A stretch of DNA of 64,000 bases from Candidatus Nomurabacteria bacterium (GCA_020632415.1 JACKFO010000002.1:776413-840412), one strand, 5' to 3'; counted from the stretch's first letter, positions 10,143 to 51,426 are shown. Numbers and translations: made by a program. Notes: a model not told the origin generated them from the letters alone.

Positions 10143-10718
10143 ATGAAAAAAAGATTGTTGTTGCACTCTTGTTGTGCACCGTGCTCAATTTATATTCTTC
10201 AGCAGTTAATGTCTTCATGGGACTTGACTGTTTATTTTTATGACCCAAATATTCATCCACGTGCTGAGTATAATCAACGTCGTGATGAAATGAAAAATTA
10301 CACAGCAAAGCTTGGGCTTGATTTTATTGAAGGACCTTATGATTCTCTGGCTTGGCTTGAAAAAACTAAGGGTTTGGAAGATGAGCCAGAAAGAGGTAAA
10401 CGTTGTGATCAATGTTTTGACTTACGTTTAGGTGAAACAGCGCGTTTTGCTAAGCTAGAAAAGTACGATGCCTTTGCCACTGTTTTGACGATTAGCCCTC
10501 ATAAAGATGCTCAAAAAATTAGCTTGATTGGTCAAAAGTTAGCTCAAAGTTTTGGTCTTGAGTTTTTAGATCGCGATTGGAAGAAAAAAGATGGTTTTAA
10601 AATTTCTTGCGCCTTAAGCAAAGAACAAGGATTTTATCGACAAGATTATTGCGGTTGTTTGTATTCTAAGAGAGATAGTCTCTTGAGGAAAGTTAAAAGA
10701 GAAAAAAATGAAAATTGA
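10143..10718 (+). CDS. queH: Epoxyqueuosine reductase QueH (DUF208 family)
   Basis: Hallmark N-terminal LHSCCAPCS cysteine motif plus downstream Cys pairs (CDQC, CGC). Confidence 0.8.
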   Translation: MKKRLLLHSCCAPCSIYILQQLMSSWDLTVYFYDPNIHPRAEYNQRRDEMKNYTAKLGLDFIEGPYDSLAWLEKTKGLEDEPERGKRCDQCFDLRLGETARFAKLEKYDAFATVLTISPHKDAQKISLIGQKLAQSFGLEFLDRDWKKKDGFKISCALSKEQGFYRQDYCGCLYSKRDSLLRKVKREKNEN

Positions 10719-11733
10719 TTTATTTGATTACAATTTACCAAAAGAGCTCATTGCTCAAACACCAATTGATCCTCGAGATCACTGTCGGTTACTTGTGCTA
10801 GATAAAAAAACTGGGAATTTTTTAGATCGATATTTTTATGAGCTGCCAAAATTTTTGGATCAAAATAGCGTCTTGGTTTTAAATGAAACCAAAGTTTTTC
10901 CAGCTCGTCTGAAGGCCAAGAAAAAAACTGGTGGAGAGGTGGAAATTTTTTTGACAAAAAAAATAAACTCAAAGAGTTGGGAGTGCTTAGTGGGTGGTCG
11001 AGGAATAAAAGTGGAGGATCAGTTATTTTTAGCAGAAGATTTAGTTGGTAAAATTATTGAGGATCTTGATGGTAAAACCAAAATTATTCAATTTAATCAA
11101 GCAGATGATAAATTTTTACAGACTGTTGAGAAAATTGGACAGACTCCTTTGCCGCCTTACATCAAGACTGCGGATAGTAAAAAAATTAGAGATGATTATC
11201 AAACAGTTTTTGCCAAAGACAAAGGCTCTGTTGCCGCTCCAACTGCTGGTCTGCACTTTACCAAAGAATTATTAGAAAAAATAAAAGCGCAAGGAGTAGA
11301 AATTTTGACTGTGACTTTGCATGTCGGTTTAGGAACTTTTGCTCCAGTTGAAGTCGAGGAAATTGAAGAGCATCAGATTCATAGCGAATGGGCGAGCATC
11401 AAAAAAGATGTTTCTGATCGATTAAATGATTTAAAAAAATCAGGGAAGAATATTATTGCTGTCGGAACAACCGCTGCTCGTACTCTAGAAGCTTTTTCTA
11501 CTGCCAAAGGAAATTTGGCATCAGGAGAAAAATGGGTGAAGATTTATATTTATCCAGGGTATAAGTATCGTTTTGTTGATGGTCTAATTACAAACTTTCA
11601 TTTACCAAAAAGTTCTTTGTTATTTATGGTCTCAGCTCTGGCGGGGAGAGAAAATATCATGGCGGCTTATCAGCATGCGCTTAAAAATGATTATCGATTT
11701 TTTTCTTTTGGGGATGCAATGTTTATTAAATAA
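10708..11733 (+). CDS. queA: S-adenosylmethionine:tRNA ribosyltransferase-isomerase QueA
   Basis: Conserved motifs (FDYNLP..LIAQ, PLPPYI, GTTAARTLE, NFHLPKSSLLFMVSA); overlaps the queH stop by 11 nt. Confidence 0.9.
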   Translation: MKIDLFDYNLPKELIAQTPIDPRDHCRLLVLDKKTGNFLDRYFYELPKFLDQNSVLVLNETKVFPARLKAKKKTGGEVEIFLTKKINSKSWECLVGGRGIKVEDQLFLAEDLVGKIIEDLDGKTKIIQFNQADDKFLQTVEKIGQTPLPPYIKTADSKKIRDDYQTVFAKDKGSVAAPTAGLHFTKELLEKIKAQGVEILTVTLHVGLGTFAPVEVEEIEEHQIHSEWASIKKDVSDRLNDLKKSGKNIIAVGTTAARTLEAFSTAKGNLASGEKWVKIYIYPGYKYRFVDGLITNFHLPKSSLLFMVSALAGRENIMAAYQHALKNDYRFFSFGDAMFIK

Positions 11734-15689: not shown

Positions 15690-18600
15690 ATGAAACATTT
15701 TAAGCTAATTGAAGATACTCTAAAAAATCGAATGATTGTCAGTATTCTGGCGATCTTTGTTTTGTCTTTGTTTAATGTTTGGTTTAGTTATCGTGGTCAA
15801 ATTGCCGTACATGCTGCTTTAGCTCATCAAATTTTTTATATTGATAATCAATTGTCAGGAGAATGTTTGAACTACGTGACGTCTACGAGAACTTGTGGCG
15901 CTTCTTCTGGTATCAGAGCTTGGTCTGATTTAAGTGACGGCTTGAAAGCTATAAAAGATTTGCAAAGCAACGGGACGATTGAACTCGGAGGGCATAATAT
16001 TTATATTCGATCTGGTAAATATTATGATCGAGTAGTTGATTGGCCTTATGGCGCCAATGATAATAAGCGCAATTTTATTAGTGGGTACAATAACGAAATT
16101 CCTGTAATTTCTGGAGCTAAAATATTGTCTAATTGGAGTAGCGAAGGCAATGACATTTACAGTACCACAGATTTAAGTGGAACCAATTATTATCTAGATG
16201 TCAGAGATATTTATCAAGATGATGTTCGACTTACAGAAGCAGAATATCCAAACAATGGAGCTTACTACACCATTGATGATCGTGGTGATGGCACTTACAT
16301 TGAAGATACGGAATTAATTGCTTTGTATAATCAAAATCCAGATTTAGTTTTGGATGCAACTGTTGAATTTTTAGGTCGTGATCTGTATGGTGAGCGTTTT
16401 AAGATTCAGTCTGTTGATTTAAATACAAATAGAGCTTATTTTTATCCCGACAATACTATCGGCTCCGCTCCTTATCCAAATGCAATTTATCATTTGGTTG
16501 GAAAATTAGATTTTCTTGACCAGGCCGGAGAATTTTATTATCAAGTAAGTGCTGATGGAAAAAATGGAGAAGTGGCCTATGTTAAGTTTGCTGCTGGCGA
16601 TAACCCAAATGGTCATTTAATGGAGGTCCCCGATCAAGAAATTTTTCATTTTGGTTATGGCTCTACTCGGCCAGCTTACTATTTGACGGTTTCAAATTTG
16701 GAATTAAAAAATGCTACGCAGGGAGTTTATTTTCAGGGAGAAAGAGATTATATTGCTACTTATGGCAATGATTTTGTTCACCATATCACACTAGATAATA
16801 TAAATAGTCATGATCACGCTCGTTTTGGTTTTATTTTAGGCGGCAATGTCCATCATGTTATTGTTAAAAACAGCAAAGCAGAAAACAATAATGCTGCTGG
16901 CTTCTATTTTCTTGGTTTTTATAAACCGGTTTGTGGTGATGGTAGACTTGATAACTGGACCATTGGTCCAGAATACCAAACTAATCCTGAGCAATGTGAC
17001 GATGGAAATTTGATAGATGGCGATGGTTGTTCATCGACCTGTGGTTTAACGCCTGGATATAATGCCTTGGCCGTGGAGCCCTGGAATGATTATTTTAAAA
17101 GCTATATCACGATTGATAATAATATTATTAGAAATAATAAATCAAACGGCATTTCATTTTCTTATTTAGCAGAAGGAATTATTAGCAATAATACTTTAGA
17201 GTACAATGGAGCGCATTCGGTTAATTCTGGCATTGGTACACAACGTGGATCAGATAATCAGATTTTTGGAAATTCTATTAGCTATCAGGGCGGTAATGGT
17301 ATTTTGATCGAAGGCGGTGTTGATGAAAAAGCTCAAAGATTTGATATTCATGATAATGTCATTCACTATAGTGCCTATAATGTTGATCCACATATTTCCG
17401 CTTATTTTGGAATTTGGTTAGATGAAGCTAATGAAAATAATGTCTATAATAATACTTTTTATGCGGAAAATGGTCGTGGATTTGCTTTGGGCGGAGGAGA
17501 TAATAACAAAATAGTTTATAATAAATTTTTGGATATTTTTGGCGGTGTCTCAGATGAAGAAAATCGTTATGCTTGGTCTGGCTATCTTTATGAAGGTGAA
17601 GGTGAGAGTTTGAAAAATAATATTATTGCTCACAATATTTTTACTGGTAAATTTAATGTTGGCATTTACATGAAGCCAGCAAGCGTAAATGGTTCTGGTA
17701 CCATTGTTAATAATCTGATGGCTAATAACATTTTTTATTCTAGTCGTTCAGATAAAGTGCAGATGAATGATTTGTCGCCAAATATTAATCATTCTATTAA
17801 TACTTACAACAATAATTTGTATTATGCGCCAAATTCAAGTAACGTAGTTTATAATTATCAAGATGTAGATTATTCAAGCTTAAGTTCTTTTCGATCGGCT
17901 TCTTCTCAAGAATCACTTTCTCTCCAAACCAATCCATTGTTTACTAATTTCTCTCAAGAAAACTTTACTCTCCAGTCTAACTCTCCAGCTATTGACCAAG
18001 GAATGTTAATCAGTGGAGTAAACACCAATAACTTCCAAGGTTTTGCTCCAGACATTGGACCTTTAGAATATGCCTCAGGGCCTACTTGTTCCAACTCCAT
18101 CCTAGAAAGTGGAGAAACCTGTGACGATGGAAACCTTAACAATGGCGATGGTTGTTCCTCAAGTTGCCAGATAGAACAAGAAACCCCACCGCCAGCTTCA
18201 TGTACAGACAATATCCAAAATGGTAATGAAACAGGAATAGACTGTGGAGGTTCATGCCCTGCTTGTGACAACGGAGGAGGAAACCCTCTACCACCTCCAC
18301 CAGAGAACCCACCAATAGTATGTGGTAACTCCATCACAGAAAGTGGAGAAACTTGTGACGATGGTAATACAAACAATGGCGATGGATGTTCCTACCTCTG
18401 TCAAATAGAAGAAGACAATCAAGCGACATCAACCACCAACTCAATTAATGTTTTAAAAGCTCAAGGCTTTCTAGCCAAAGCGCCTAACGACCCTAGGGTA
18501 TATTACATTAACCAAGAAAGTAAAAGATATTACATCCCTAACCTTACTACTTTCTACACTTGGTTTAACAACTTTAACTCTCTTCAAGTCATTGACCAAG

Positions 18601-19034
18601 TTACTTTAAATAATAGCTATCCATACGAAGGAAGACTTACTGTTAAACCAGGTAATCTAGTTAAATTCCAAGACTCTAACAAAGTCTATGCAATAGAACC
18701 AGAAAAAACCCTAAGATGGATTACAAGTGGCAATATCTTCTCTGACTTTGGTTATGACTTTAATAAAATCATCCATCTTCCTCAAGAAGACTTTAGTTAC
18801 TACACAATAGGAGAAAACATTACTACTTCAGATATTCACCCTAGTGGACAATTATTAAAGCATGGTTCTTACCCTCAAGTCTTCTATGTTCAAGACGGTA
18901 TAGAATACTGGATCAAAGACCAAAACACTTTCTTATCTCTAGGCTTTAAATGGCAAGATATTATTACCATCCCAGTCAGATACTGGTATACTAGAATCCT
19001 AGATAACTTAAGCTTTAAGTTGAAGGATTGGTAG
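15690..19034 (+). CDS. Giant secreted/surface protein: N-terminal TM/signal anchor, right-handed parallel beta-helix (PbH1) repeats, three Myxococcus-type cysteine-rich repeats (C..DDGN..GDGCS..C), Pro-rich linker, three copies of a C-terminal about 50-aa repeat module
   Basis: N-terminal hydrophobic segment; repeated NN.I..N...GI beta-helix turns; CDDGNLIDGDGCSSTC, CDDGNLNNGDGCSSSC and CDDGNTNNGDGCSYLC repeats; PLPPPPENPP linker; C-terminal VY..W/YI..F..G..W motif repeats. Confidence 0.8.
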   Translation: MKHFKLIEDTLKNRMIVSILAIFVLSLFNVWFSYRGQIAVHAALAHQIFYIDNQLSGECLNYVTSTRTCGASSGIRAWSDLSDGLKAIKDLQSNGTIELGGHNIYIRSGKYYDRVVDWPYGANDNKRNFISGYNNEIPVISGAKILSNWSSEGNDIYSTTDLSGTNYYLDVRDIYQDDVRLTEAEYPNNGAYYTIDDRGDGTYIEDTELIALYNQNPDLVLDATVEFLGRDLYGERFKIQSVDLNTNRAYFYPDNTIGSAPYPNAIYHLVGKLDFLDQAGEFYYQVSADGKNGEVAYVKFAAGDNPNGHLMEVPDQEIFHFGYGSTRPAYYLTVSNLELKNATQGVYFQGERDYIATYGNDFVHHITLDNINSHDHARFGFILGGNVHHVIVKNSKAENNNAAGFYFLGFYKPVCGDGRLDNWTIGPEYQTNPEQCDDGNLIDGDGCSSTCGLTPGYNALAVEPWNDYFKSYITIDNNIIRNNKSNGISFSYLAEGIISNNTLEYNGAHSVNSGIGTQRGSDNQIFGNSISYQGGNGILIEGGVDEKAQRFDIHDNVIHYSAYNVDPHISAYFGIWLDEANENNVYNNTFYAENGRGFALGGGDNNKIVYNKFLDIFGGVSDEENRYAWSGYLYEGEGESLKNNIIAHNIFTGKFNVGIYMKPASVNGSGTIVNNLMANNIFYSSRSDKVQMNDLSPNINHSINTYNNNLYYAPNSSNVVYNYQDVDYSSLSSFRSASSQESLSLQTNPLFTNFSQENFTLQSNSPAIDQGMLISGVNTNNFQGFAPDIGPLEYASGPTCSNSILESGETCDDGNLNNGDGCSSSCQIEQETPPPASCTDNIQNGNETGIDCGGSCPACDNGGGNPLPPPPENPPIVCGNSITESGETCDDGNTNNGDGCSYLCQIEEDNQATSTTNSINVLKAQGFLAKAPNDPRVYYINQESKRYYIPNLTTFYTWFNNFNSLQVIDQVTLNNSYPYEGRLTVKPGNLVKFQDSNKVYAIEPEKTLRWITSGNIFSDFGYDFNKIIHLPQEDFSYYTIGENITTSDIHPSGQLLKHGSYPQVFYVQDGIEYWIKDQNTFLSLGFKWQDIITIPVRYWYTRILDNLSFKLKDW

Positions 19035-19055: not shown

Positions 19056-19841
19056 ATGAAAAAAGATATTATAGTTTTAGATTTAGAAACTAAAAAAACA
19101 TTTGATGAAGTAGGCGGTCACCAAAATCAACACCTTTTGGGCGTTTCTTTGGTTGGGGTTTATTCTTATAATTTAGATAAATATCGTGGCTTCAAAGAAG
19201 AGGAATTCGCTGAACTTTTAGAGTTATTAAAAAATGCTGGACTAGTGATCGGTTTTAATAGTAAGTTTTTTGATTTTCCAGTTTTACAGCCTTATTATAA
19301 AGATTTTGATTTAAGCACGATTCCACATTTAGACATTATGGAAGAGGTTGTTCATGCTTTAGGACATCGTTTAAAATTAGAATCAGTTGCTCAAAGTACT
19401 TTGGGTTATGGAAAATCAGGTTCAGGACTTGATGCTATTGTTTATTATCGAAACAATGACTGGGAAAAATTGATTAAATATTGTTTAGATGATGTCAAAG
19501 TTACCAAAGAAATCTATGATTATGGTTTGAAACACGGAAATATTTGGTACCATAATTCTGGTTTAAAAACCTCGATTGTTGCTCGTTGGTTTGATCAAAA
19601 AGAAACGCCAATTCGTGAAATAGTAGAGAAAGCTTTTGCTGCTGGAGAACAATTAGAAATTGATTATATTGACGAAGGCGGTCAAGTGACCAAAAGAAAA
19701 ATTGACATTCAAGCAATTAAGGGAAACAAAGTAAAAGCTTTTTGTCATTTACGCGATGCTTTGAGAGTATTTGAAATTGATCGAATCAAAGATGCTAAAA
19801 TAGTCGGGCAAATGAAAAGTTTTCAAAGTAGTTTGTTATAG
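19056..19841 (+). CDS. DEDD-type 3'-5' exonuclease (RNase H-like fold) fused to a C-terminal WYL-like ligand-binding domain
   Basis: Exo I IVLDLET, Exo II GFNSKFFDFPVL, Exo III YCLDDVKVTKEIYDY; C-terminal segment EIDYIDEGGQVTKRKI...AFCHLRDALRVFEIDRIKDAKIV fits the WYL domain consensus (Y..g..t.R.i.P....a.C.lr...R.F.ldRI). Confidence 0.6.
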   Translation: MKKDIIVLDLETKKTFDEVGGHQNQHLLGVSLVGVYSYNLDKYRGFKEEEFAELLELLKNAGLVIGFNSKFFDFPVLQPYYKDFDLSTIPHLDIMEEVVHALGHRLKLESVAQSTLGYGKSGSGLDAIVYYRNNDWEKLIKYCLDDVKVTKEIYDYGLKHGNIWYHNSGLKTSIVARWFDQKETPIREIVEKAFAAGEQLEIDYIDEGGQVTKRKIDIQAIKGNKVKAFCHLRDALRVFEIDRIKDAKIVGQMKSFQSSLL

Positions 19842-19862: not shown

Positions 19863-19893
19863 TAAAAAATCGTGTTAAGCACGATTTTTTTTA
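19863..19893. terminator. Bidirectional terminator between the exonuclease-WYL gene and convergent folD; the folD stop codon lies in the loop
   Basis: A-run, atcgtg-ttaag-cacgat hairpin, T-run. Confidence 0.5.
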
Positions 19894-20712: not shown

Positions 20713-21975
20713 TTATAATTCAGGGTAAAGGGGGAAGTTTTTCATCAAGTTCAAAACTTTTTCTTTATTTTTTTCTTCTACTTTTTTGGATTTTAAAGTA
20801 TCAATAATTACTTCAGCGATAATTGTTATTTCAGCTTCTTTTAAACCACGAGTAGTTAAAGCTGCGGTACCAAGTCTGATTCCAGATGGGTCCATTGGCT
20901 TGCGCATATCAAAAGGAACCATATTTTTGTTGGTAAAAATATAATTCTGATCCAGCAAGGTTTCAGCCTCCTGACCAGACAAGTCTAGAGGAGTGACGTC
21001 GATTAATAATAAATGATTATCAGTGCCGCCAGAAATTATTTTAATATTAGCTTCTTTAAATTTATTTTCTAAAACCTTAGCATTAGCCAAAACTTGTTTT
21101 TGGTATGCGACAAATTCTACTTGCAAGGCCTCTTGGAAAGCTACTGCCTTTGCAGCAATAATATGTTCTAATGGGCCACCTTGTAGCCCTGGAAAAACAG
21201 CAGAGTCAATTTTTTGTGCTAGATTTTTCTTGCCACCGGAGTCTAGACGATCTTGTATTTTAGATAAGATCAAAGCACCGCGAGGACCGCGCAAAGTTTT
21301 GTGGGTTGTGGTTGTTACTACGTCAGCATGGGGAATTGGATCTGGGTGAAGTTTGGCCGCAACAAGGCCAGCAATATGGGCCATGTCGATCATTAAATAC
21401 GCTCCGACACCATCGGCAATCTCTTTGAATTTAGCAAAATCAATTTGACGAGAATAAGCAGATGCTCCAGCTAAGATAACTTTTGGTCTGTGTTTTTCTG
21501 CCTGTGCTTTGACTTCATTAAAGTCGATTAATTCAGTTTTTTTGCCTACGCCATAACTGACAAAGTTATATGATTTGCCAGAAAAGTTTACCGGATGTCC
21601 ATGGGTCAAGTGTCCACCGTGAGCCAGTGAAAAGCCTAAGATTGTGTCATGTAAATTACATAGAGCAAAATAAGCTTCAGCATTAGCAGTAGATCCTGAG
21701 TGTGGTTGGACATTAGCATGTTCAGCGCCAAAAAGTTTTTTAGCTCTTTCAATAGCTAGCATTTCTGCTTGGTCAATAAATTCATTACCACCATAATAGC
21801 GTTTGTTAGGATAACCTTCGGCATATTTATTGGTTAGCACCGAGCCAGCTGCTTCTAAAACGCTCAGAGAAACAAAATTTTCCGAAGCAATCATTTCGGC
21901 ACCAGTGCGTTGGCGATTGAGTTCATTTTTGATAATTTCCGCTATTTGCGGATCGGTATTTTGTAGATTTTTCAT
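20713..21975 (-). CDS. glyA: Serine hydroxymethyltransferase
   Basis: PLP-lysine context [12 protein letters not shown] and other SHMT hallmark regions (ENFVS..V, YGGNE.ID); 1-nt gap to folD. Confidence 0.95.
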
Positions 21976-21990
21976 GAGTTTATTATATCA

Positions 21991-23613
21991 TTATTTCAAA
22001 GTTTTAGTCACATAAGTGCCTTCTAGCTCATAGCCTAGTTTACGGTAATAATTTCTAACGCCAATTCCAGAAATAACAGCGACTTTATCTAAGCCTTGTT
22101 CTAAAGTAATGCGTTCAGCTTCGGCCATTAATCTTTTGCCTAAACCTAAATGTTGAGTGTTAGAAATGGCACCATTTTCATCATCAGTTTCGTCATTGGT
22201 TGCCGGAATCATTTTTCCATAGACATGAAGTTCACGAACTAAAGAGGCGTTTTTAAGTTCTGGAAAAATATTTTTTTCAGGCTGTTCGTTAATTCGTAAA
22301 CGCAAAAAAGCATAAACTTTAGTGTGTTCTTTATTTTCAAAACTCAAAAACCATTCCTTGCCTTCTGAGGCGTTGTATTGTCTTTTGACTAATTCAATTT
22401 GTTTGATATCAAATTCTTCACCTTTGACTTCACGACAACGTAGACAGCGACAAGATAAATTTTGTCTTTTTAATTCATTTTGCAAATATTGTCTGAGGTT
22501 AGTGATTTTGTTTCCAGCGATAATACTTTCTTCTGGAATATCTCGAATCAAACGATTGATTCTCATGTAAGGGGGAACGATTTTTTTGACAGCCAGTAAT
22601 AAATCTAATAATTCTTTTTCCGAATAAGGCTGATAGCGACCCTCTTCGTACCATTTATTTAGTTCAGCAAATTCATTGACTACGCAAGGATAAATTTTTA
22701 ATTGATCTGGTTGTAAGTCTGGAGAGTTAAAAACATATTCAAACATTTCATAATCTTTTTCTGGAGTGGAACCTGGTAAATCTGGCATATAGTGGTGATC
22801 AACCTTAAATCCAGCGTCTTTAAGCAGACGAGTGGCAATAATTGATTGTTCTATATTATGTCCACGTTTGATTAAGTCTAAAATTTGGTTATCCGTATGT
22901 TGGACTCCAAGCTGGACACGAGTGCAGCCTAAATTTCTTAATTTTTTAACTTCAGTTTCTGAAATAAAATCAGGACGAGTCTCCAAAGTGAGGCCAATGA
23001 TTTTGTACGTTGTGTCTTCATTTATTTTTTGTTCAGCAGCCAAGTTTTTCTTTTCACGTTTTTGCCCATCGCCATAGGTATTGGCAGCATAAAATAAGTC
23101 ACGAATGAAATCATGTTGGTAATGGTCAGGGTAAACAGACCAAGTGCCACCCAAAACTAAAATTTCAATTTTGTCTACTAAGTGGCCATTGTTTTCTAAG
23201 GCCTTGATTCGCATATTTACCTGTCGTTCAGCGTCAAATAAGTTCATCTTAGCTCGCATGGCCGCTGGCTCATTAGACAAATAGCTTTTAGGCATATCAG
23301 GTTCAGTTGGACAATAGACACATTTTCCCGGACAAACAAAAGGTTTGGTCAAAACAGTAATCACTGAAACACCAGATAAGGTACGAACAGCTCGTTTGGT
23401 TAAGAGTTGACTAAATTTTTGGTCTTCTTTGATCTTGCCCTCTTTTACCAATTGACGATAAGTAGAAATTAGGTTAGCTTTAGTGGTAGGCGCGAGCTTG
23501 TGTTGAGAAAAGACTTGTCTCAAAGCCTTAATAAATTCCAACTCACTAGCATATTTAGTATTTGCTAGTTCTAAAACAATATTTTCTAATAATTTTTTTT
23601 CAATATCCGCCAT
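21991..23613 (-). CDS. elp3: Elp3-family radical SAM / GNAT tRNA wobble-uridine modification enzyme (tRNA carboxymethyluridine synthase homolog)
   Basis: Radical-SAM cysteine motif FVCPGKCVYCP, extended Elp3 radical SAM domain, C-terminal GNAT acetyltransferase fold (GLGKRLMAEAERI...KLGYELEG). Confidence 0.85.
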   Translation of the reverse strand: MADIEKKLLENIVLELANTKYASELEFIKALRQVFSQHKLAPTTKANLISTYRQLVKEGKIKEDQKFSQLLTKRAVRTLSGVSVITVLTKPFVCPGKCVYCPTEPDMPKSYLSNEPAAMRAKMNLFDAERQVNMRIKALENNGHLVDKIEILVLGGTWSVYPDHYQHDFIRDLFYAANTYGDGQKREKKNLAAEQKINEDTTYKIIGLTLETRPDFISETEVKKLRNLGCTRVQLGVQHTDNQILDLIKRGHNIEQSIIATRLLKDAGFKVDHHYMPDLPGSTPEKDYEMFEYVFNSPDLQPDQLKIYPCVVNEFAELNKWYEEGRYQPYSEKELLDLLLAVKKIVPPYMRINRLIRDIPEESIIAGNKITNLRQYLQNELKRQNLSCRCLRCREVKGEEFDIKQIELVKRQYNASEGKEWFLSFENKEHTKVYAFLRLRINEQPEKNIFPELKNASLVRELHVYGKMIPATNDETDDENGAISNTQHLGLGKRLMAEAERITLEQGLDKVAVISGIGVRNYYRKLGYELEGTYVTKTLK

Positions 23614-24271
23614 GTCTGATGATTTAAAAACAATTTATAACCAAATTGCTGAAGAATTTTCTGCTTCCCGAGTTTTTCCCTGGGAAGAATTACAAGTTTT
23701 TATACCATACATTCAGGATAATTTCAAGATCTTGGATTTGGGTTGCGGTAATGGTCGTTTATTAAAATCTTTAGAAGAAAGTAGTAAAAATTTTGATTAT
23801 ACTGGTATTGATTTTAGCGAAGGTTTGATCAAGCAAGCTAAAAAGCAGTTTCCAAAATATCCATTTAGCGTTGTTGATATGCGAGAGCTAGATTTTCCCA
23901 AAGAAAGTTTTGACATGATTTTTTCTATCGCTGCTTTTCATCACTTAGATAAAAAGAAAGAAAGAGTAGAATTACTTAAAAAAATAAATAACTGGCTTAA
24001 ACCTGGCGGCTATTTATTTATGACCAATTGGGATTTAAGACAAAAGAAATATTTGAAAAACTTTTTTAGTCAATGGTGGAAAAAACGAGCTTGGAACGAT
24101 GTCTTTATTTCTTGGCAAAAATATTCTGACAATCAAAAAAAGCTTTGGCGTTATTACCATAGCTTTACGGAAAATGAATTAGAAAAATTATTATTAGACG
24201 CTGGATTTAAATTAGAACCAAAAGGTGTTTATAAAACTAAATGGAATATTAATTGTTTTGTCAAAAAGTAA
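23612..24271 (+). CDS. Trm9/ALKBH8-type class I SAM-dependent tRNA methyltransferase (putative cm5U to mcm5U methyl ester formation)
   Basis: IYNQIAEEFSASRVFPWEE..LDLGCGNGR..FDMIFSIAAFHHL..ERVELLKKINNWLKPGGYLFMTNWDLRQ closely matches my recollection of yeast Trm9 (VYNEIAPHFSQTRYKPWP, DVGCGNGK, SIAVVHHWSTRERR, ALIYCWALEQ). Confidence 0.6.
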   Translation: MSDDLKTIYNQIAEEFSASRVFPWEELQVFIPYIQDNFKILDLGCGNGRLLKSLEESSKNFDYTGIDFSEGLIKQAKKQFPKYPFSVVDMRELDFPKESFDMIFSIAAFHHLDKKKERVELLKKINNWLKPGGYLFMTNWDLRQKKYLKNFFSQWWKKRAWNDVFISWQKYSDNQKKLWRYYHSFTENELEKLLLDAGFKLEPKGVYKTKWNINCFVKK

Positions 24272-24285
24272 TTTGACAAATATTT

Positions 24286-25704
24286 TTAGTTAGCTTCTTC
24301 AATCATTGTTTCTTCAAAAGTTTTTTCTGTCAATTTATCTTCTTCGGTAATTTTTTTATTTTTCCACTTACCACGACGATACCACCAGATAGTAATAATA
24401 GTTGAGAGAATATTGGCGATTGGGAAAGCTAGCCACAAGCCAAACTCTGCTAAATCAGTGAATTTACTTAAAATCAAAGCCAATGGAAACTGCAAAACCC
24501 AAAAGGAAACAATAGACAAGATCATAGCTGACATAGTGTCTCCAGCGCCACGTAAGGTTCCGGTTAAAATTTGTTGAACAGCCATCAAGCCAAAAGTAAA
24601 GGCAATAATCTTAATAAATAAAGCGCTCAAATGAATAACTTCTAGCTCACCAGGGACAAAAATACCACTTAATGGTTTTGCTAGAAAGAACATAATTAAA
24701 CCGACTAGGCTTAAACTCCAAAAGCCAAACCAAGCGCTCTGCTTAGTGATTTTTTCTGCGCGAGACATTTGGTTGGCGCCAATATTTTGGCTAACCAAAG
24801 TAGAGGTAGCCATCGATAGACCAAGTGCGGGAATAATAATAAAGCTAAAAATGCGTCCCCCAATTCCGTAAGCCGCCAAAACAGTTGTACCAAAACTAGC
24901 AACCAAAAAAGTCATCACTGCCATGCCAAAAGCTCGCATTGATTGCTCTATCGAAGCTGGTAATCCAATTTTAAAGATTTTCAAAATAGTGTTTTTGCTT
25001 GGTTTTAAATTTTTTAATCTCAAATGAATATCATGTTTTCCGGCAAAGAGAATAAATAAGCCAATTATTGTGGCAATCGCTTGTGTGCCAATAGTGGCAA
25101 TTGCTGCGCCAGTAACACCGAAGCCGGGGATCGGTCCAAAGCCCAAAATAAACAAAGGGTCTAAAAATAAATTTAAGATCACAGTTGATAAAATAATGTA
25201 CATTGGTGTTTTGACATCACCAACTCCACGGAGTAAAGATTGAAAAACTGCCGTACCAAAAACAAAGACCATTCCTAAGAATGAAATTTGTAAATAAGAA
25301 ATTGCTTGAGGCATCACTTCGGGAGCGGCGCCCATGATTCTGACTAGGAGAGGAGAAATAAAATAACCAAGCAAACTTAAGACAATAGAAACCATGACTA
25401 CGATGCTCATAGTTTGTCCAGAAATAAAATCAATCATTTTTTGATTATTTTGCCCCTTGTATTGAGCAGCTAAAATTGTTCCGGCCATCGCTAAACCACC
25501 GCCAAAAGAAATTACCAAAAATAGCAATGGAAAACTTAGCGAAACTGCAGCAACTGCTTCGGCGCCAAGACGGCCGACCCAAAATGTATCGGTGATTTGG
25601 TAGGCAGTTTGTAAAATATTAGCAAAGATGATTGGAACAGCCAAAGCTAAAAGTGATTTAAAAATGTTTCCAGATAATAAGTTGTTTGTTTTTGTATTTT
25701 GCAT
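24286..25704 (-). CDS. MATE-family efflux transporter
   Basis: 472 aa, 12 TM helices, two repeated 6-TM halves typical of MatE. Confidence 0.8.
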   Translation of the reverse strand: MQNTKTNNLLSGNIFKSLLALAVPIIFANILQTAYQITDTFWVGRLGAEAVAAVSLSFPLLFLVISFGGGLAMAGTILAAQYKGQNNQKMIDFISGQTMSIVVMVSIVLSLLGYFISPLLVRIMGAAPEVMPQAISYLQISFLGMVFVFGTAVFQSLLRGVGDVKTPMYIILSTVILNLFLDPLFILGFGPIPGFGVTGAAIATIGTQAIATIIGLFILFAGKHDIHLRLKNLKPSKNTILKIFKIGLPASIEQSMRAFGMAVMTFLVASFGTTVLAAYGIGGRIFSFIIIPALGLSMATSTLVSQNIGANQMSRAEKITKQSAWFGFWSLSLVGLIMFFLAKPLSGIFVPGELEVIHLSALFIKIIAFTFGLMAVQQILTGTLRGAGDTMSAMILSIVSFWVLQFPLALILSKFTDLAEFGLWLAFPIANILSTIITIWWYRRGKWKNKKITEEDKLTEKTFEETMIEEAN

Positions 25705-25707
25705 AAT

Positions 25708-26241
25708 TTAATCCATGTGAGTAATTCGTTTGGCAGAATAAACTTTTTGTTTTCCGCTGATGACAATTCCTAGATTATAATATTTTTTGTCACTGTGTGT
25801 ATCGACGTCATGCCAACGTTTCATTAGCTCAGAGAATTCCAGATAAGTTTTGATCGTTACCGCTGGATCTTCAAAATAAATTTTTTTTTGATCATAACCA
25901 ATGGCAATGGCAAAATGTCCGCTAGACCAATGCTTTGACCAATTATGCACTTTTCTCTTTGGCCACGCTTGGAGCATTAAGATCACTGGTTGTTGACGAT
26001 CAATGTATTTTTTTAAGTCATCGATCGTCATTTTTTTAGCATGATATTTTAAGCCAAAATGTTGAGCTATTTTTTCTAGGCCAGCCAAAGGCGTGCCGTG
26101 GTGATCGTTGGTGTCAGCAATTTTGATTAAATCTATTTCATTAACGTCAATTCCATAATAAGCAAGCATAGCGTGCATGGTTTTGGCACCACAATCATAA
26201 TCAAAAGTTTGTCTAAATTCGGGAAATTCAATGATTTGCAT
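25708..26241 (-). CDS. Stand-alone papain-like cysteine peptidase, C39-like (Peptidase_C39_2 type)
   Basis: Catalytic Cys context FDYDCGAKTMHAMLAYYG and His context SSGHFAIAIGYD...FEDP match the C39 peptidase Cys/His motifs. Confidence 0.65.
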   Translation of the reverse strand: MQIIEFPEFRQTFDYDCGAKTMHAMLAYYGIDVNEIDLIKIADTNDHHGTPLAGLEKIAQHFGLKYHAKKMTIDDLKKYIDRQQPVILMLQAWPKRKVHNWSKHWSSGHFAIAIGYDQKKIYFEDPAVTIKTYLEFSELMKRWHDVDTHSDKKYYNLGIVISGKQKVYSAKRITHMD

Positions 26242-26244
26242 ATT

Positions 26245-26466
26245 TTAATTTATTATTTCTTCTTCCTCTTCTTCAGTAAGATCTTTAATTATTTGGCGAT
26301 GCTCTAAAATATCAGGATGCGGCGAGCCTTTTATTTTTTTTAGCAAATCTTTTTCTTCTTCATTGATTGCTCGAGGATATAAAATGAGTTCGTTTAACAA
26401 GACCAGTGCTTTTTCTTCGTATTCTGTGTGGTCAGAGTGTTTAAAAGGATTTTCTAAATGAAACAT
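26245..26466 (-). CDS. Small acidic protein (73 aa, C-terminal EEEEEE run), hypothetical; first gene of the C39-peptidase/MATE operon
   Basis: ORF lies 3 nt upstream of the peptidase gene; no recognisable domain. Confidence 0.35.
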   Translation of the reverse strand: MFHLENPFKHSDHTEYEEKALVLLNELILYPRAINEEEKDLLKKIKGSPHPDILEHRQIIKDLTEEEEEEIIN

Positions 26467-35916: not shown

Positions 35917-37512
35917 TTACTGATTTTTTGAGTTTTTTAAGTTTCTGCGATGTGCCTGGCGATAATGTTTGATCCCGAATTTATGAGCTTGATTTCGCAT
36001 ATTTTGGATGAATAAAGATAGCTTTGAATTTTGATCAATTTGTAAAGATTGTTTTTTTCCAGGAATAAAGATCTCTTCTTCCCTTTTGGCCAAAGAAATA
36101 ACTTTTTTTTGCCAAGATTTTTTTAAACTAGGATAAACAGTGTTCAGCTGACCCTTGCCACCATCTAGAATGATCAAATCAGGACTTGGCCACTCAGGGT
36201 GTTTTTGTCGGCGCTCGAGAACCTGTTTTAAAGAAGCGAAATCATCTGGTCCTACTATATTTTTGATTTTAAAAATACGATACTGATCGGCTGCAATTTT
36301 ACCATCAATAAAAACAATCATTGAACCATAAGAAAAGTTTCCTTGAATATTAGAAATATCGTAGACTTCAATTCTCTTCGGTAAATTTTTTAGTTTTAAA
36401 GTTTTTTGTAGTTGGATTAAAATTTCTAGTTTAGAATTATTTAGATTTTTTTGTAAATAATCCTCGGTATTTAATTTAAGTAGCTCTAATAATTTTTTAT
36501 TTTTGCCTTTTTGCGGAACAATATTTTGAATTTGAGAATTTATTAAAATATTTTTTATATCAACTTTAATTGGTGAGATTATTTCTTTTGGCAAATCAGA
36601 GCTTTGACTATAAAATTGTTGCAAGGTGCTTTCTAAGATTTCTTTGATTTTTAGATCAAGTTTGTTGTCAACAATGAAATTAAATTTATCACCTACAGTT
36701 CCGCGTCTGACTTGCAGTAAGCTGATAATTACTTGTTTTTGGAAAATACTAAAATTAATTAAGTCCTGATTAATGTTTTTGGTACTAACAATTTTTTGTT
36801 TTTCTTGTAAACGTTTTAAAGCAAGTATTTGGTTCTTTTTTTTGGCAGCTAGCTCAAATTGTTTTGCCGCGCTAGCCTGAGAAATTTCAGCCAATAGTTT
36901 TTTTTCTAAATCTTTAGTTTCGCCTTTGATGATTTTAACTGCTTCTTTGATTAATTTTTGATATTGATTTTCAGAAATAAATTTTTCACAAGGCCCATCG
37001 CAAAGTCCTAAGTGATACTGTAGACAAACTTTTCCTTTGGGGACAGTTTTCAAATCTCGAAGGCAAGTTCTTAGTGGTAAAATTCGATGTAATAAACGGA
37101 CGATATTTTTGGCGGCCAGAGTAGAAGTGTAAGGGCCGAAATGTTGACCTTTTAGCTTTTCGCGACCATGACTGACAACGATTCGAGGAAAAGCCTGTTC
37201 TGTGATCACAATATAGCCCCAGTTTTTATCATCTTTTAAAACGATGTTGTATTTTGGTTGATGTTTTTTGATTTGCCCAGCTTCAAGTAGCAAGCTTTCT
37301 AATTCGCTATCAACAATCGTGTACTGAATCTTTGTGATTTCAGAGAGCATATTTTGTTTAGCCTCTGTTAGATCATTTACACGTAACCAATACGAATTAA
37401 CTCTTTTTTTGAGATTTTTGGCTTTGCCAATATAAATAATCTTCCCTGTTTTATTGAGGAAAAAATAAATACCTGGTTTTTCTGGGATATTTTTGATATT
37501 GTCAGGAGTCAT
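35917..37512 (-). CDS. uvrC: Excinuclease ABC subunit C
   Basis: N-terminal GIY-YIG domain (PGIYFFLNKTGKIIYIGKAKNLKKRV), UvrBC-interaction region, C-terminal RNase H-like endonuclease and HhH region. Confidence 0.9.
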   Translation of the reverse strand: MTPDNIKNIPEKPGIYFFLNKTGKIIYIGKAKNLKKRVNSYWLRVNDLTEAKQNMLSEITKIQYTIVDSELESLLLEAGQIKKHQPKYNIVLKDDKNWGYIVITEQAFPRIVVSHGREKLKGQHFGPYTSTLAAKNIVRLLHRILPLRTCLRDLKTVPKGKVCLQYHLGLCDGPCEKFISENQYQKLIKEAVKIIKGETKDLEKKLLAEISQASAAKQFELAAKKKNQILALKRLQEKQKIVSTKNINQDLINFSIFQKQVIISLLQVRRGTVGDKFNFIVDNKLDLKIKEILESTLQQFYSQSSDLPKEIISPIKVDIKNILINSQIQNIVPQKGKNKKLLELLKLNTEDYLQKNLNNSKLEILIQLQKTLKLKNLPKRIEVYDISNIQGNFSYGSMIVFIDGKIAADQYRIFKIKNIVGPDDFASLKQVLERRQKHPEWPSPDLIILDGGKGQLNTVYPSLKKSWQKKVISLAKREEEIFIPGKKQSLQIDQNSKLSLFIQNMRNQAHKFGIKHYRQAHRRNLKNSKNQ

Positions 37513-37537
37513 ATAAGTATTATAACGGAAATATAGA

Positions 37538-50584: not shown

Positions 50585-50673
50585 ACTAAAGAAAAAATAT
50601 TTTTTAAGCCTCCAGTTTATGCTGGGGGCTTATTTTGTTTATAGCGGCAAAAAATGCTATAATATAGACATAA

Positions 50674-51426
50674 ATGAGCATGTTTAAAGATTTTGAAAAA
50701 GAAGAAGAATTAGATTTCCAGAGTGGCGAAAACTATCCCTGGGAATACGAAGAAAGTCACGAGATTTGGGTGGCTGACTTAAATGTTGCCGAACAAAAAA
50801 AATCACTTCGACAAGCCCAGGATCACGAAGTGGTAAAGGAGTCTGAACTTGAGCAATTGGATTTAGCTCAGGATGAGTCAGAAGAATTAGAATTAGCAGA
50901 AGAGACTTCTGAGTCTTTCGATGAATCAGAGCTTCAAGATGAAGAAGGACTTGAGGTTACTGATGAAGATTTGGAAATTTCCGAAACAGAAGAAGATTTG
51001 ATTTTAGAGACAAGAGAGAATTTGGAAGTTAAAAATAAAAAAAGCACTGGGCAAAATGATTTTTCTTGGTTATTTTTTGGCTTATTGTTGTTAGCTATTT
51101 TATTTGGTGGAGAAATAGTTTTACTGGCTTTGAAAAATAGTTTTTATTGGACAGATAAAGTTCTTTTTTTACTAGTCTGGCTTTGGCGTTTTGTTTTACT
51201 GATTTCTTGGTTATTTTTTTCTTTGGTCAAGAAAAGTTTTTTTAAAGAAAAGATAGTTGCTGCTACTTTAAGCGCCTTTACTTTGGGAGTTTTCTTCTCA
51301 GCAATTTGGAAAATTGTTGTGATCAAATCAGTTTGGACTTGGCTTAATTTGTTGATTGAGCCAATTTGGATGTTTTTATTAGCGGCCTTAGTAATCATTT
51401 TATTTATTAAAATATTTAAAAAATAA
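50674..51426 (+). CDS. Membrane protein with a highly acidic (E/D-rich) N-terminal domain and four C-terminal TM helices, hypothetical
   Basis: Composition and hydropathy only. Confidence 0.4.
   Translation: MSMFKDFEKEEELDFQSGENYPWEYEESHEIWVADLNVAEQKKSLRQAQDHEVVKESELEQLDLAQDESEELELAEETSESFDESELQDEEGLEVTDEDLEISETEEDLILETRENLEVKNKKSTGQNDFSWLFFGLLLLAILFGGEIVLLALKNSFYWTDKVLFLLVWLWRFVLLISWLFFSLVKKSFFKEKIVAATLSAFTLGVFFSAIWKIVVIKSVWTWLNLLIEPIWMFLLAALVIILFIKIFKK

Follow-up and report, generated by a model that had tools for sequence, protein, structure and literature searches.

Divergent elp3 and trm9-like genes with overlapping start codons in Patescibacteria: a predicted archaeal/eukaryotic-type route to modified wobble uridine in bacteria

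In a 64,000-nt stretch of DNA from Candidatus Nomurabacteria bacterium (GCA_020632415.1 JACKFO010000002.1:776413-840412; from here: the window, with positions counted from its first letter), two divergently oriented genes, elp3 and a trm9-like methyltransferase gene, begin within the same CATG tetranucleotide. Here we describe this gene pair, its conservation across the Patescibacteria, the bacteria of the candidate phyla radiation (CPR), and the evidence that it probably specifies a two-step modification of the tRNA wobble uridine (U34) leading through 5-carboxymethyluridine (cm5U) to 5-methoxycarbonylmethyluridine (mcm5U). The pair consists of the following elements:

21991-23613, minus strand: elp3, an open reading frame (ORF) of 540 aa with ATG start for a radical S-adenosylmethionine (SAM)/GNAT protein, predicted tRNA U34 carboxymethyl (cm5U) synthase, assigned by TIGR01211, Pfam and PDB matches
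23612-24271, plus strand: trm9-like gene, an ORF of 219 aa with ATG start for a class I SAM methyltransferase, predicted cm5U34 carboxyl methyltransferase (cm5U to mcm5U), assigned by its Yarrowia Trm9 match, active-site residues and Elp3 linkage
23611-23614, both strands: CATG shared by the two divergent start codons, with a two-base overlap (plus-strand ATG at 23612-23614, minus-strand ATG as the complement of 23611-23613)

ORF calling and base reading bore out the positions, the strands and the shared CATG given in the initial annotation of this DNA. Both ATG starts are credible because the methyltransferase has no alternative start codon ahead of Tyr9, a residue invariant in its family, and because Elp3 relatives of only 44-55% identity align from residue 1. 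The window has a GC content of 36% and represents an ordinary bacterial chromosome, with genes for FtsH, S1, GyrA, RuvB, QueH, QueA, YchF, UvrD, UvrA, UvrC, GroEL, DnaG, pyruvate kinase and PPDK; Parcubacteria GW2011_GWA2_36_10 is among its closest relatives.

Assignment of the two proteins

Comparison with characterised sequences fully supports the assignment of the minus-strand protein as a full-length Elp3. It scored 537.9 bits against the NCBIfam model TIGR01211 (cutoff 350), with residues 43-539 corresponding to model positions 27-522 of 522, and matched Radical_SAM, Radical_SAM_C and, just over its cutoff, Acetyltransf_1 in Pfam. Among PDB entries the archaeal MinElp3 was matched at an E-value of 1e-117, Dehalococcoides Elp3 (DmcElp3) at 9e-111, and the yeast and human Elp3 proteins at about 1e-94. 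The elements of the predicted enzyme are:

23389-23613, minus strand: N-terminal extension, residues 1-75, with 14 Lys/Arg; the alignment begins at residue 57 with MinElp3 and at residue 73 with DmcElp3
23308-23334, minus strand: [4Fe-4S] radical-SAM motif CPGKCVYCP, residues 94-102 (C94, C98 and C101; Cx3Cx2C), from motif reading
22435-22452, minus strand: linker cysteine cluster CRCLRC, residues 388-393 (C388, C390 and C393), conserved in CPR Elp3
22138-22155, minus strand: lysine acetyltransferase (KAT)/GNAT acetyl-CoA motif QHLGLG, residues 487-492, from motif reading
22030-22050, minus strand: C-terminal YYRKLGY, residues 522-528, from motif reading

Conservation was judged in two alignments of CPR Elp3 sequences (n = 62 and n = 16). 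The three cysteines C94, C98 and C101 are invariant in the 16 sequences and at least 90% conserved in the 62. The SAM-binding GGT motif (GGTW at residues 155-158), ETRPD, CRCLRC, QHxGxG and YYRKLGY are also kept across both alignments, and Q487, H488, G490, G492, Y522 and Y528 are invariant in one of the two. Hence the description in the initial annotation, a full Elp3 homolog with CPGKCVYCP and a C-terminal GNAT domain, held throughout, and the KAT residues on which it depended are present.

The radical-SAM and KAT two-domain build is the same as in MinElp3 (PDB 6iaz/6ia8) and in Elp3 of Dehalococcoides mccartyi (PDB 5l7j), and the zinc cysteine cluster and the acetyl-CoA motif are common to all three; the zinc site in the linker of bacterial and archaeal Elp3 has been described (PMC6367351). 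As for these stand-alone enzymes, no Elp1, Elp2 or Elp4-6 partners are expected. The Cx3Cx2C spacing is one residue shorter than the aligned archaeal Cx4Cx2C (CPHGKCxFC), and the host is a CPR bacterium, whereas that of MinElp3 is an archaeon. The basic N-terminal extension of about 75 residues is shared with MinElp3 but not with DmcElp3. In archaeal and eukaryotic Elp3 this extension is needed for binding the anticodon stem-loop, and it is missing from Dehalococcoides Elp3 (PMC6367351). Judged from its sequence, the extension of the CPR protein is of the archaeal/eukaryotic tRNA-binding type.

The plus-strand protein is supported as a Trm9-like enzyme, closer over its full length to Trm9 than to other characterised methyltransferases by the sequence comparisons made. 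As a single sequence its top PDB match was Yarrowia Trm9 (YlTrm9; 5cm2_Z, E 1.6e-19), to which it is about 27-30% identical. A profile of 33 homologs again placed Yarrowia Trm9 first, at 95.6 bits (E 2.9e-26) and over the full length, ahead of phosphoethanolamine methyltransferases and 3sm3, which reached at most 77.7 bits, mostly over the Rossmann core. With hhalign, Trm9 aligned over 184 columns at E 6e-26, compared with 124 N-terminal columns at E 5.7e-10 for E. coli CmoM (BLASTP E 0.002). In the reverse direction, Yarrowia Trm9 searched against the 1,491 ORFs of 81 CPR loci matched only this methyltransferase family (69 matches). The AlphaFold2 model (mean predicted local distance difference test score 91.6) consists of a seven-stranded sheet and a two-strand lid. 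The initial annotation had considered a grouping with CmoM or UbiE as the outcome that would contradict it; by profile and alignment scores the protein is no closer to either of them than to Trm9.

Other identities were tried and rejected. The protein scored 66 bits against the BioC model (cutoff 185) and 49 bits against that of UbiE (cutoff 216), its scores for CmoA and CmoB were far under the cutoffs, and in the case of CmoM only the N-terminal Rossmann core aligned. E. coli CmoM (SmtA), which converts 5-carboxymethoxyuridine (cmo5U34) to its methyl ester (mcmo5U34), performs an analogous SAM-dependent esterification of a C5 carboxyl side chain on the wobble uridine, likewise in a bacterium, but it is without the HH and RYYH elements of Trm9 and is partnered by CmoA and CmoB rather than by Elp3.

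The active site of Trm9 has been dissected by mutagenesis in yeast. Variants D72A, H116A, W145A and W168A of the Saccharomyces enzyme (ScTrm9) are inactive, R29A, R241A, Y243A and N271A lose at least 90% of the activity, and Y18 and H115 are further residues lining the site (Létoquart et al., PMC4678810). We counted residue conservation in the 33 homologs and checked the register against YlTrm9 numbering in alignments. The corresponding elements are:

23636-23683, plus strand: N-terminal Trm9 helix motif YNQIAEEFSASRVFPW, residues 9-24; Y9, F16, R20 and W24 invariant in the 33 homologs
23732-23755, plus strand: SAM-binding motif I LDLGCGNG, residues 41-48; D42 invariant
23939-23944, plus strand: His-His pair H110-H111 in SIAAFHH, equivalent to H115/H116 of ScTrm9 and H126/H127 of YlTrm9
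24029-24043, plus strand: WDLRQ, residues 140-144; W140 equivalent to ScTrm9 W145, which stacks on U34, and Q144 to ScTrm9 Q149
24107-24160, plus strand: lid region with W168 and the RYYH motif; R180 equivalent to ScTrm9 R241, Y182 to Y243 and W168 to W168
24245-24247, plus strand: N212, candidate equivalent of ScTrm9 N271 (uracil edge), Asn in 32 of the 33 homologs

Y9 (ScTrm9 Y18), R20 (R29, which positions the carboxylate), D42 (D72), H111 (H116), W140 (W145), R180 (R241) and Y182 (Y243) are all invariant. H110 (H115) is kept in 31 of the 33 sequences, and the position of W168 is always aromatic (W in 25, Y in 6, F in 2). N212 is the probable sequence equivalent of N271. Taken together, nine of the ten mapped residues show no or almost no variation across the family, and for nine of the ten the spacing agrees exactly with YlTrm9 numbering. 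The nearest structures other than Trm9, 3sm3 and the phosphoethanolamine methyltransferases, are without the HH and RYYH motifs, which together with the full-length profile match, the hhalign result and the retained mutagenised residues favours the Trm9-like reading proposed in the initial annotation. The motifs on which that proposal relied (YN.IA..F...R..PW, D.GCGNG, SIAa.HH and WxLxQ) are present as described, with two corrections: WxLxQ follows strand beta-5 and forms no C-terminal tail, and the spacing from HH to ER is five residues instead of three.

The YxxIAxxFxxxRxxPW helix, HH, WxLxQ, the lid Trp and RYYH are shared with the Trm9-Trm112 systems of Saccharomyces and Yarrowia (PDB 5cm2), with the methyltransferase domain of human ALKBH8 and with Haloferax volcanii Trm9. 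In these systems Trm9 is functionally linked to Elp3, as it is in the CPR by gene adjacency. The CPR methyltransferase differs from them in its bacterial origin and in being without the insertions of ScTrm9 and the extra domains of ALKBH8.

A further difference concerns the activator Trm112. Without Trm112, Trm9 from eukaryotes is neither soluble nor active, and the Haloferax enzyme binds this activator too. We searched all ORFs of at least 35 aa with phmmer, using E. coli YcaR, and with a Zn-knuckle pattern. Neither the window nor the flanks of 80 loci yielded a credible Trm112/YcaR-like ORF, the few pattern hits resembling other small zinc-ribbon proteins. Moreover, hydrophobic residues of YlTrm9 that contact Trm112 are replaced in the CPR homologs: V59 by Lys in 28 of 33, A110 by Asp or Asn in 23 of 33, and V102 by variable, mostly polar or charged residues. 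The position of V102 is that of ScTrm9 L91, and the exchange L91R breaks the yeast Trm9-Trm112 complex. Because no Trm112 is found in the window or the 80 flanks and the contact residues are exchanged, a stand-alone methyltransferase is suggested, and we consider that the CPR enzyme probably works without a Trm112 activator.

The family is large, with 662 clusters at 90% identity (E <= 1e-5) and 1,227 clusters at 50% identity (E <= 1e-30), and its named members come almost entirely from metagenome-assembled genomes (MAGs) of Patescibacteria/CPR. NCBI names the members 'class I SAM-dependent methyltransferase', while a few already carry the labels 'tRNA (uracil-5-)-methyltransferase TRM9' or ALKBH8 in the automatic annotation of JGI. 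Full-length Trm9-like methyltransferases also occur on viral contigs (loci L162-L176 from IMG/VR, several of them GVMAG giant-virus bins), with 25-32% identity over residues 2-205 of the window protein. No Elp3 lies within 5 kb of the giant-virus genes, and no copies on CPR phages were found among the viral contigs.

Conservation of the pair and its genomic setting

Two sets of loci were compared, one picked by the methyltransferase profile (80 GTDB species-representative loci) and one picked by the Elp3 profile (67 metagenome loci in which the upstream sequence spans 700 nt or more). In the first set, Elp3 adjoins the methyltransferase in 70 of the 80 loci, and in 68 of these it is divergent and directly upstream; three of the ten loci without Elp3 have upstream sequence too short to judge. 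In the second set, the methyltransferase adjoins Elp3 in 57 of the 67 loci. The pairing holds down to about 35% methyltransferase identity and is found on more than 120 independent CPR contigs, some longer than 300 kb, with lineage labels including Komeili-, Falkow-, Gracili-, Peregrini-/Peri-, Nealson-, Magasanik- and Kuenenbacteria, Paceibacterota and others. The pair is thus syntenic in related genomes, a point on which the initial annotation had made its interpretation depend, and this synteny is the strongest argument for a functional link between Elp3 and the methyltransferase. The identities of the two genes among close relatives gave a Pearson r of 0.84 but a Spearman rho of 0.24 and hence are little informative.

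One Elp3/Trm9-like locus (L054, DAOPTN010000030.1) belongs to a MAG labelled Candidatus Pacearchaeota, a DPANN archaeon. For many other loci the taxon label is evidently unreliable, e.g. 'uncultured Gammaproteobacteria'.

The head-to-head geometry is conserved as well. In each of the 68 divergent pairs the start was set to the ATG nearest the aligned N-terminus, with a crude gene caller that served for the comparison pairs too. Under this definition, 18 pairs share one CATG, five share CATATG, and 48 have starts at most 30 nt apart. The median start gap is -1 nt, versus 100 nt for the other divergent pairs of the same loci (Mann-Whitney p = 5e-9); the six other divergent gaps in the window measure 28-273 nt. 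Since the other divergent pairs keep a median of 100 nt, the close layout is a conserved property of this pair and not a consequence of general compaction.

With the start codons overlapping in CATG, the opening codons of either gene must also house the -10/-35 elements of its partner. A promoter scan of the region returned 22 promoter-like sites versus 15.7 ± 2.9 expected, none of them convincingly placed for elp3 or the methyltransferase gene. A Shine-Dalgarno-like core, even a weak one, was seen for only 2 of the 39 longer genes of the window. TATAAT-like boxes end 7-12 nt ahead of the ATG in several window genes, such as glyA (upstream stretch 21976-21995), uvrC at 35917-37512 (upstream stretch 37513-37535) and the ORF at 50674 (upstream stretch 50650-50673), and a test of -10 box positions in 557 genes gave a weak excess 6-9 nt ahead of the starts. 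Very short leaders or leaderless mRNAs are suggested as the norm in this genome. In this scheme elp3 and the methyltransferase gene would be transcribed divergently from interlocked promoters into mRNAs with very short leaders or none, and the conserved layout suggests joint control of both pathway steps.

Clustering of the neighbours revealed no universal third gene beyond Elp3; glyA, a phosphoglucomutase-like gene and several small families are confined to certain lineages. As separate observations, one member of the Trm9-like family (P0212, 377 aa) is fused to a C-terminal NUDIX hydrolase domain, and a 143-aa family located just downstream of Elp3 in eight loci (e.g. L009 7692-8114) appears NUDIX-like by eye.

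In the window, elp3 is followed on the same strand by glyA and folD:

20713-21975, minus strand: glyA (serine hydroxymethyltransferase), 15 nt downstream of elp3, Pfam SHMT 558 bits
19875-20711, minus strand: folD (methylene-tetrahydrofolate dehydrogenase/cyclohydrolase), 1 nt after glyA, from Pfam
19864-19890: terminator-like hairpin overlapping the folD stop codon, from a terminator scan
21982-22011, minus strand: promoter-like site GTGACT-18-TATAAT with TG extension, inside the elp3 3' end and directly upstream of glyA, from a consensus scan; such sites are not significantly enriched in the region

An elp3-glyA-folD operon, as proposed in the initial annotation, is only partly supported. 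The co-directional order and the short gaps (15 nt from the elp3 stop to the glyA start, 1 nt from the glyA stop to the folD start) were confirmed. Set against this, the promoter-like site precedes glyA, its TATAAT box ending 9 nt ahead of the glyA ATG, and proximity is not conserved. In about 24 of 70 genome loci glyA occurs downstream of elp3, mostly 0.5-3 kb off with genes in between; a distance of no more than 300 nt is confined to the window and three other loci (L001, L004 and L077). We therefore regard glyA as a loosely conserved neighbour. There is no mechanistic need for a link to glyA-folD because Elp3 uses acetyl-CoA and SAM, not folate.

Several other genes of the window were recorded. 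A second wobble-base pathway is represented by queH (epoxyqueuosine reductase) and queA, which overlap by 11 nt at 10143-11733 on the plus strand; the bacterial-type queuosine route would therefore coexist with the predicted archaeal/eukaryotic-type Elp3/Trm9 route in one genome. A predicted secreted protein of 1114 aa (15690-19034, plus strand) shows, by eye, right-handed beta-helix-like repeats and three Cys-rich 'CGDG/DDGN..GDGCS' modules, followed by a Pro-rich linker and a C-terminal domain. Convergent with folD, a 261-aa protein (19056-19841, plus strand) combines an RNase H-like (PolB-exonuclease-like) domain with a C-terminal WYL domain. A 73-aa acidic ORF and, just downstream of it, the gene of a stand-alone C39-like peptidase domain protein of 177 aa (25708-26466, minus strand) both lie upstream of a MatE transporter gene (24286-25704) on the same strand. 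The segment from 33.8 to 35.6 kb encodes a 599-aa solute-binding protein.

Predicted pathway and competing explanations

We assign a probability of about 0.75 to the interpretation that the elp3 and methyltransferase genes encode a two-step U34 tRNA modification pathway of the archaeal/eukaryotic type in a Patescibacteria bacterium. In the first step, as expected from family membership, the [4Fe-4S]/SAM radical domain and the acetyl-CoA-binding KAT domain of Elp3 would attach a carboxymethyl group to C5 of U34, yielding cm5U, while the basic N-terminal extension would hold the anticodon stem-loop as in archaeal Elp3. In the second step, predicted from the active-site residues and the gene linkage, the Trm9-type methyltransferase would move the methyl group of SAM to the carboxylate of cm5U, yielding mcm5U. 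For this step, R20 and H111 are the predicted carboxylate-positioning residues, H110 and N212 those that would recognise the uracil, and W140 the one that would stack on the base. Formation of mcm5U may be followed by 2-thiolation.

Several points weigh against this interpretation. Both enzymatic steps are predictions by homology. The Pfam matches of the methyltransferase (Methyltransf_25 and Methyltransf_11) and its NCBIfam assignments are generic for class I enzymes; in the NCBIfam scan no model reached its cutoff, and neither Pfam nor NCBIfam returned a Trm9-specific model. In fold searches Trm9 was among the top matches, second by Foldseek, but class I folds are too alike for this to tell families apart. 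N212 aligns with ScTrm9 N271 only after a two-residue shift, since HMMER puts the corresponding YlTrm9 N222 two residues earlier. About 10-15% of the loci are without the partner gene inside the available flank. Finally, in 22 of 161 loci, some of them without an adjacent Elp3, a TagA-like gene directly follows the methyltransferase gene 3' on the same strand, and this gene has no place in the tRNA model.

Among the alternatives, the one that survives best, although we hold it to be improbable, is that the pair acts on U34 but with an end product other than mcm5U. The methyl ester could be an intermediate towards 5-carbamoylmethyluridine (ncm5U), the product could be a thiolated or further derivative, or another Elp3-dependent intermediate could be methylated. 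In yeast, trm9 mutants are reported to accumulate ncm5U, which shows a branching of the pathway (PMC3110198), archaeal U34 products have been described as 'similar but not identical' to 2-thiolated mcm5U (mcm5s2U), and in some lineages the pair has extra neighbours or fusions (TagA-like, NUDIX). However, the active-site residues for carboxylate methylation are conserved, and neighbour clustering detected no amidotransferase-like or AlkB-like partner conserved beside the pair.

Slightly less likely still is that the methyltransferase acts as a carboxyl- or other O-methyltransferase on a substrate other than tRNA, e.g. an intermediate (uronic acid or linkage unit) in the synthesis of a cell-wall glycopolymer with TagA/WecG-type enzymes, with the adjacency to Elp3 being gene order only. 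We keep this explanation mainly because of the unexplained TagA link, and the solely generic methyltransferase matches in Pfam and NCBIfam are compatible with it. The linked TagA-like sequence is mostly a separate gene in a different reading frame, with an in-frame fusion in L070. Six long, full-length family members (P0194, P0200, P0208, P0250, P0257 and P0259) consist of a complete Trm9-like methyltransferase fused to a WecG/TagA/CpsF domain, and this glycosyltransferase domain scores 192 bits against the TagA structure 7mpk. Yet the TagA (GT26) link is limited to a subset of lineages of the Gracilibacteria/Peregrinibacteria/Peribacteria type (loci L019-L021, L023, L024, L029, L030, L034, L035, L037, L038, L048, L057, L070, L079, L096, L101, L103, L112, L116, L117, L135, L218 and L219), and in the window no TagA-like gene follows the methyltransferase gene. 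Fused genes remain head to head with Elp3 (L218 and L219), one of them at a distance of 4 nt on a 346-kb contig. The Elp3 link is far more general, extending to 85-90% of the loci, and the equivalents of the residues with which Trm9 touches the uracil ring and the cm5 carboxylate vary little or not at all.

We give very little credence to a third explanation, in which Elp3 is a protein lysine acetyltransferase or has another non-tRNA role, the methyltransferase is an unrelated housekeeping enzyme and the layout results from genome compaction alone. A GNAT/KAT domain is present and CPR genomes are compact; but bacterial, archaeal and eukaryotic Elp3 hydrolyse acetyl-CoA only on tRNA and not on histone or tubulin peptides (PMC6367351), other divergent pairs of the same genomes keep their starts a median of about 100 nt apart, and Elp3 stays paired with this one methyltransferase family even at very deep divergence. 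Least likely of all, and effectively refuted by the synteny data, is foreign DNA, be it contamination from an archaeon or eukaryote, an error in contig assembly or a recent transfer confined to this genome: although the best characterised relatives of both proteins are archaeal and eukaryotic and one related locus (L054) is labelled Pacearchaeota, the pair is flanked by ordinary bacterial genes in one 64-kb stretch of uniform character, it recurs on the more than 120 independent CPR contigs, and the identities of both genes drop together in close relatives (by Pearson r, with a weak rank correlation).

Relation to known systems and significance

That this pathway is essentially eukaryotic and archaeal, as the initial annotation stated, matches the reviews. 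A 2020 review assigned cm5U-derived and mcm5U-type wobble nucleosides to Archaea and Eukarya only, and a 2017 review noted no detectable bacterial homologs of Trm112-dependent methyltransferases, Trm9 included. The claimed rarity of bacterial Elp3 found mixed backing: the Dehalococcoides protein was called 'a rare example' in a structural paper (PMC6367351), whereas Elp3 is now said to be present in 'numerous bacteria'. For the further claim that no bacterial Elp3-Trm9 gene pair had been described, the searchable literature, which did not include most subscription journals, yielded nothing relevant that connects CPR, Patescibacteria or Parcubacteria with Elp3, Trm9 or tRNA modification. The claim has to be qualified by the JGI labels mentioned above and by an archaeal precedent, the Elp3-Trm9 gene cluster of Sulfolobus solfataricus (Grosjean et al. 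2008, PMC2584109).

Among archaea, Trm9 homologs are restricted to a limited subset. Like the CPR pair, the Sulfolobus cluster brings the genes for both enzymes physically together in a prokaryotic genome. It is archaeal and was noted in one genome, whereas the CPR pair is bacterial, superphylum-wide and head to head with overlapping or nearly overlapping starts. The bacterial MnmE-MnmG system, with MnmC or MnmM, addresses the same target, C5 of U34 in tRNAs of split codon boxes, and presumably serves the same decoding purpose. Its chemistry is unrelated, using GTPase/FAD (flavin adenine dinucleotide) enzymes and methylene-tetrahydrofolate with glycine or ammonium instead of radical SAM with acetyl-CoA.

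We regard the pair as a known two-enzyme pathway in an unexpected domain and not as a new kind of system, and it is apparently undescribed in bacteria. Its distinctive traits are the superphylum-wide conservation, the conserved overlap of divergent start codons and, probably, the independence of Trm112. It is conceivable, but in our judgement rather doubtful, that Elp3/Trm9 is the principal route to xm5U34 across the Patescibacteria in place of MnmE-MnmG, with a Trm112-independent Trm9, obligatorily interlocked back-to-back promoters and, in lineages of the Gracilibacteria/Peregrinibacteria type, a coupling to TagA that represents an undescribed step or a moonlighting role.

If the pair works as predicted, mcm5U-type decoding chemistry would be widespread in Bacteria. 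The pair is also relevant to the archaeal-like traits of the translation machinery in the CPR. The pair would constitute a two-protein system without the Elongator scaffold and probably without Trm112, suited to studying the hand-over of the product from Elp3 to Trm9 and the contribution of Trm112. The overlapping divergent starts provide a natural case for studying the initiation of transcription and translation without leaders or Shine-Dalgarno sites.

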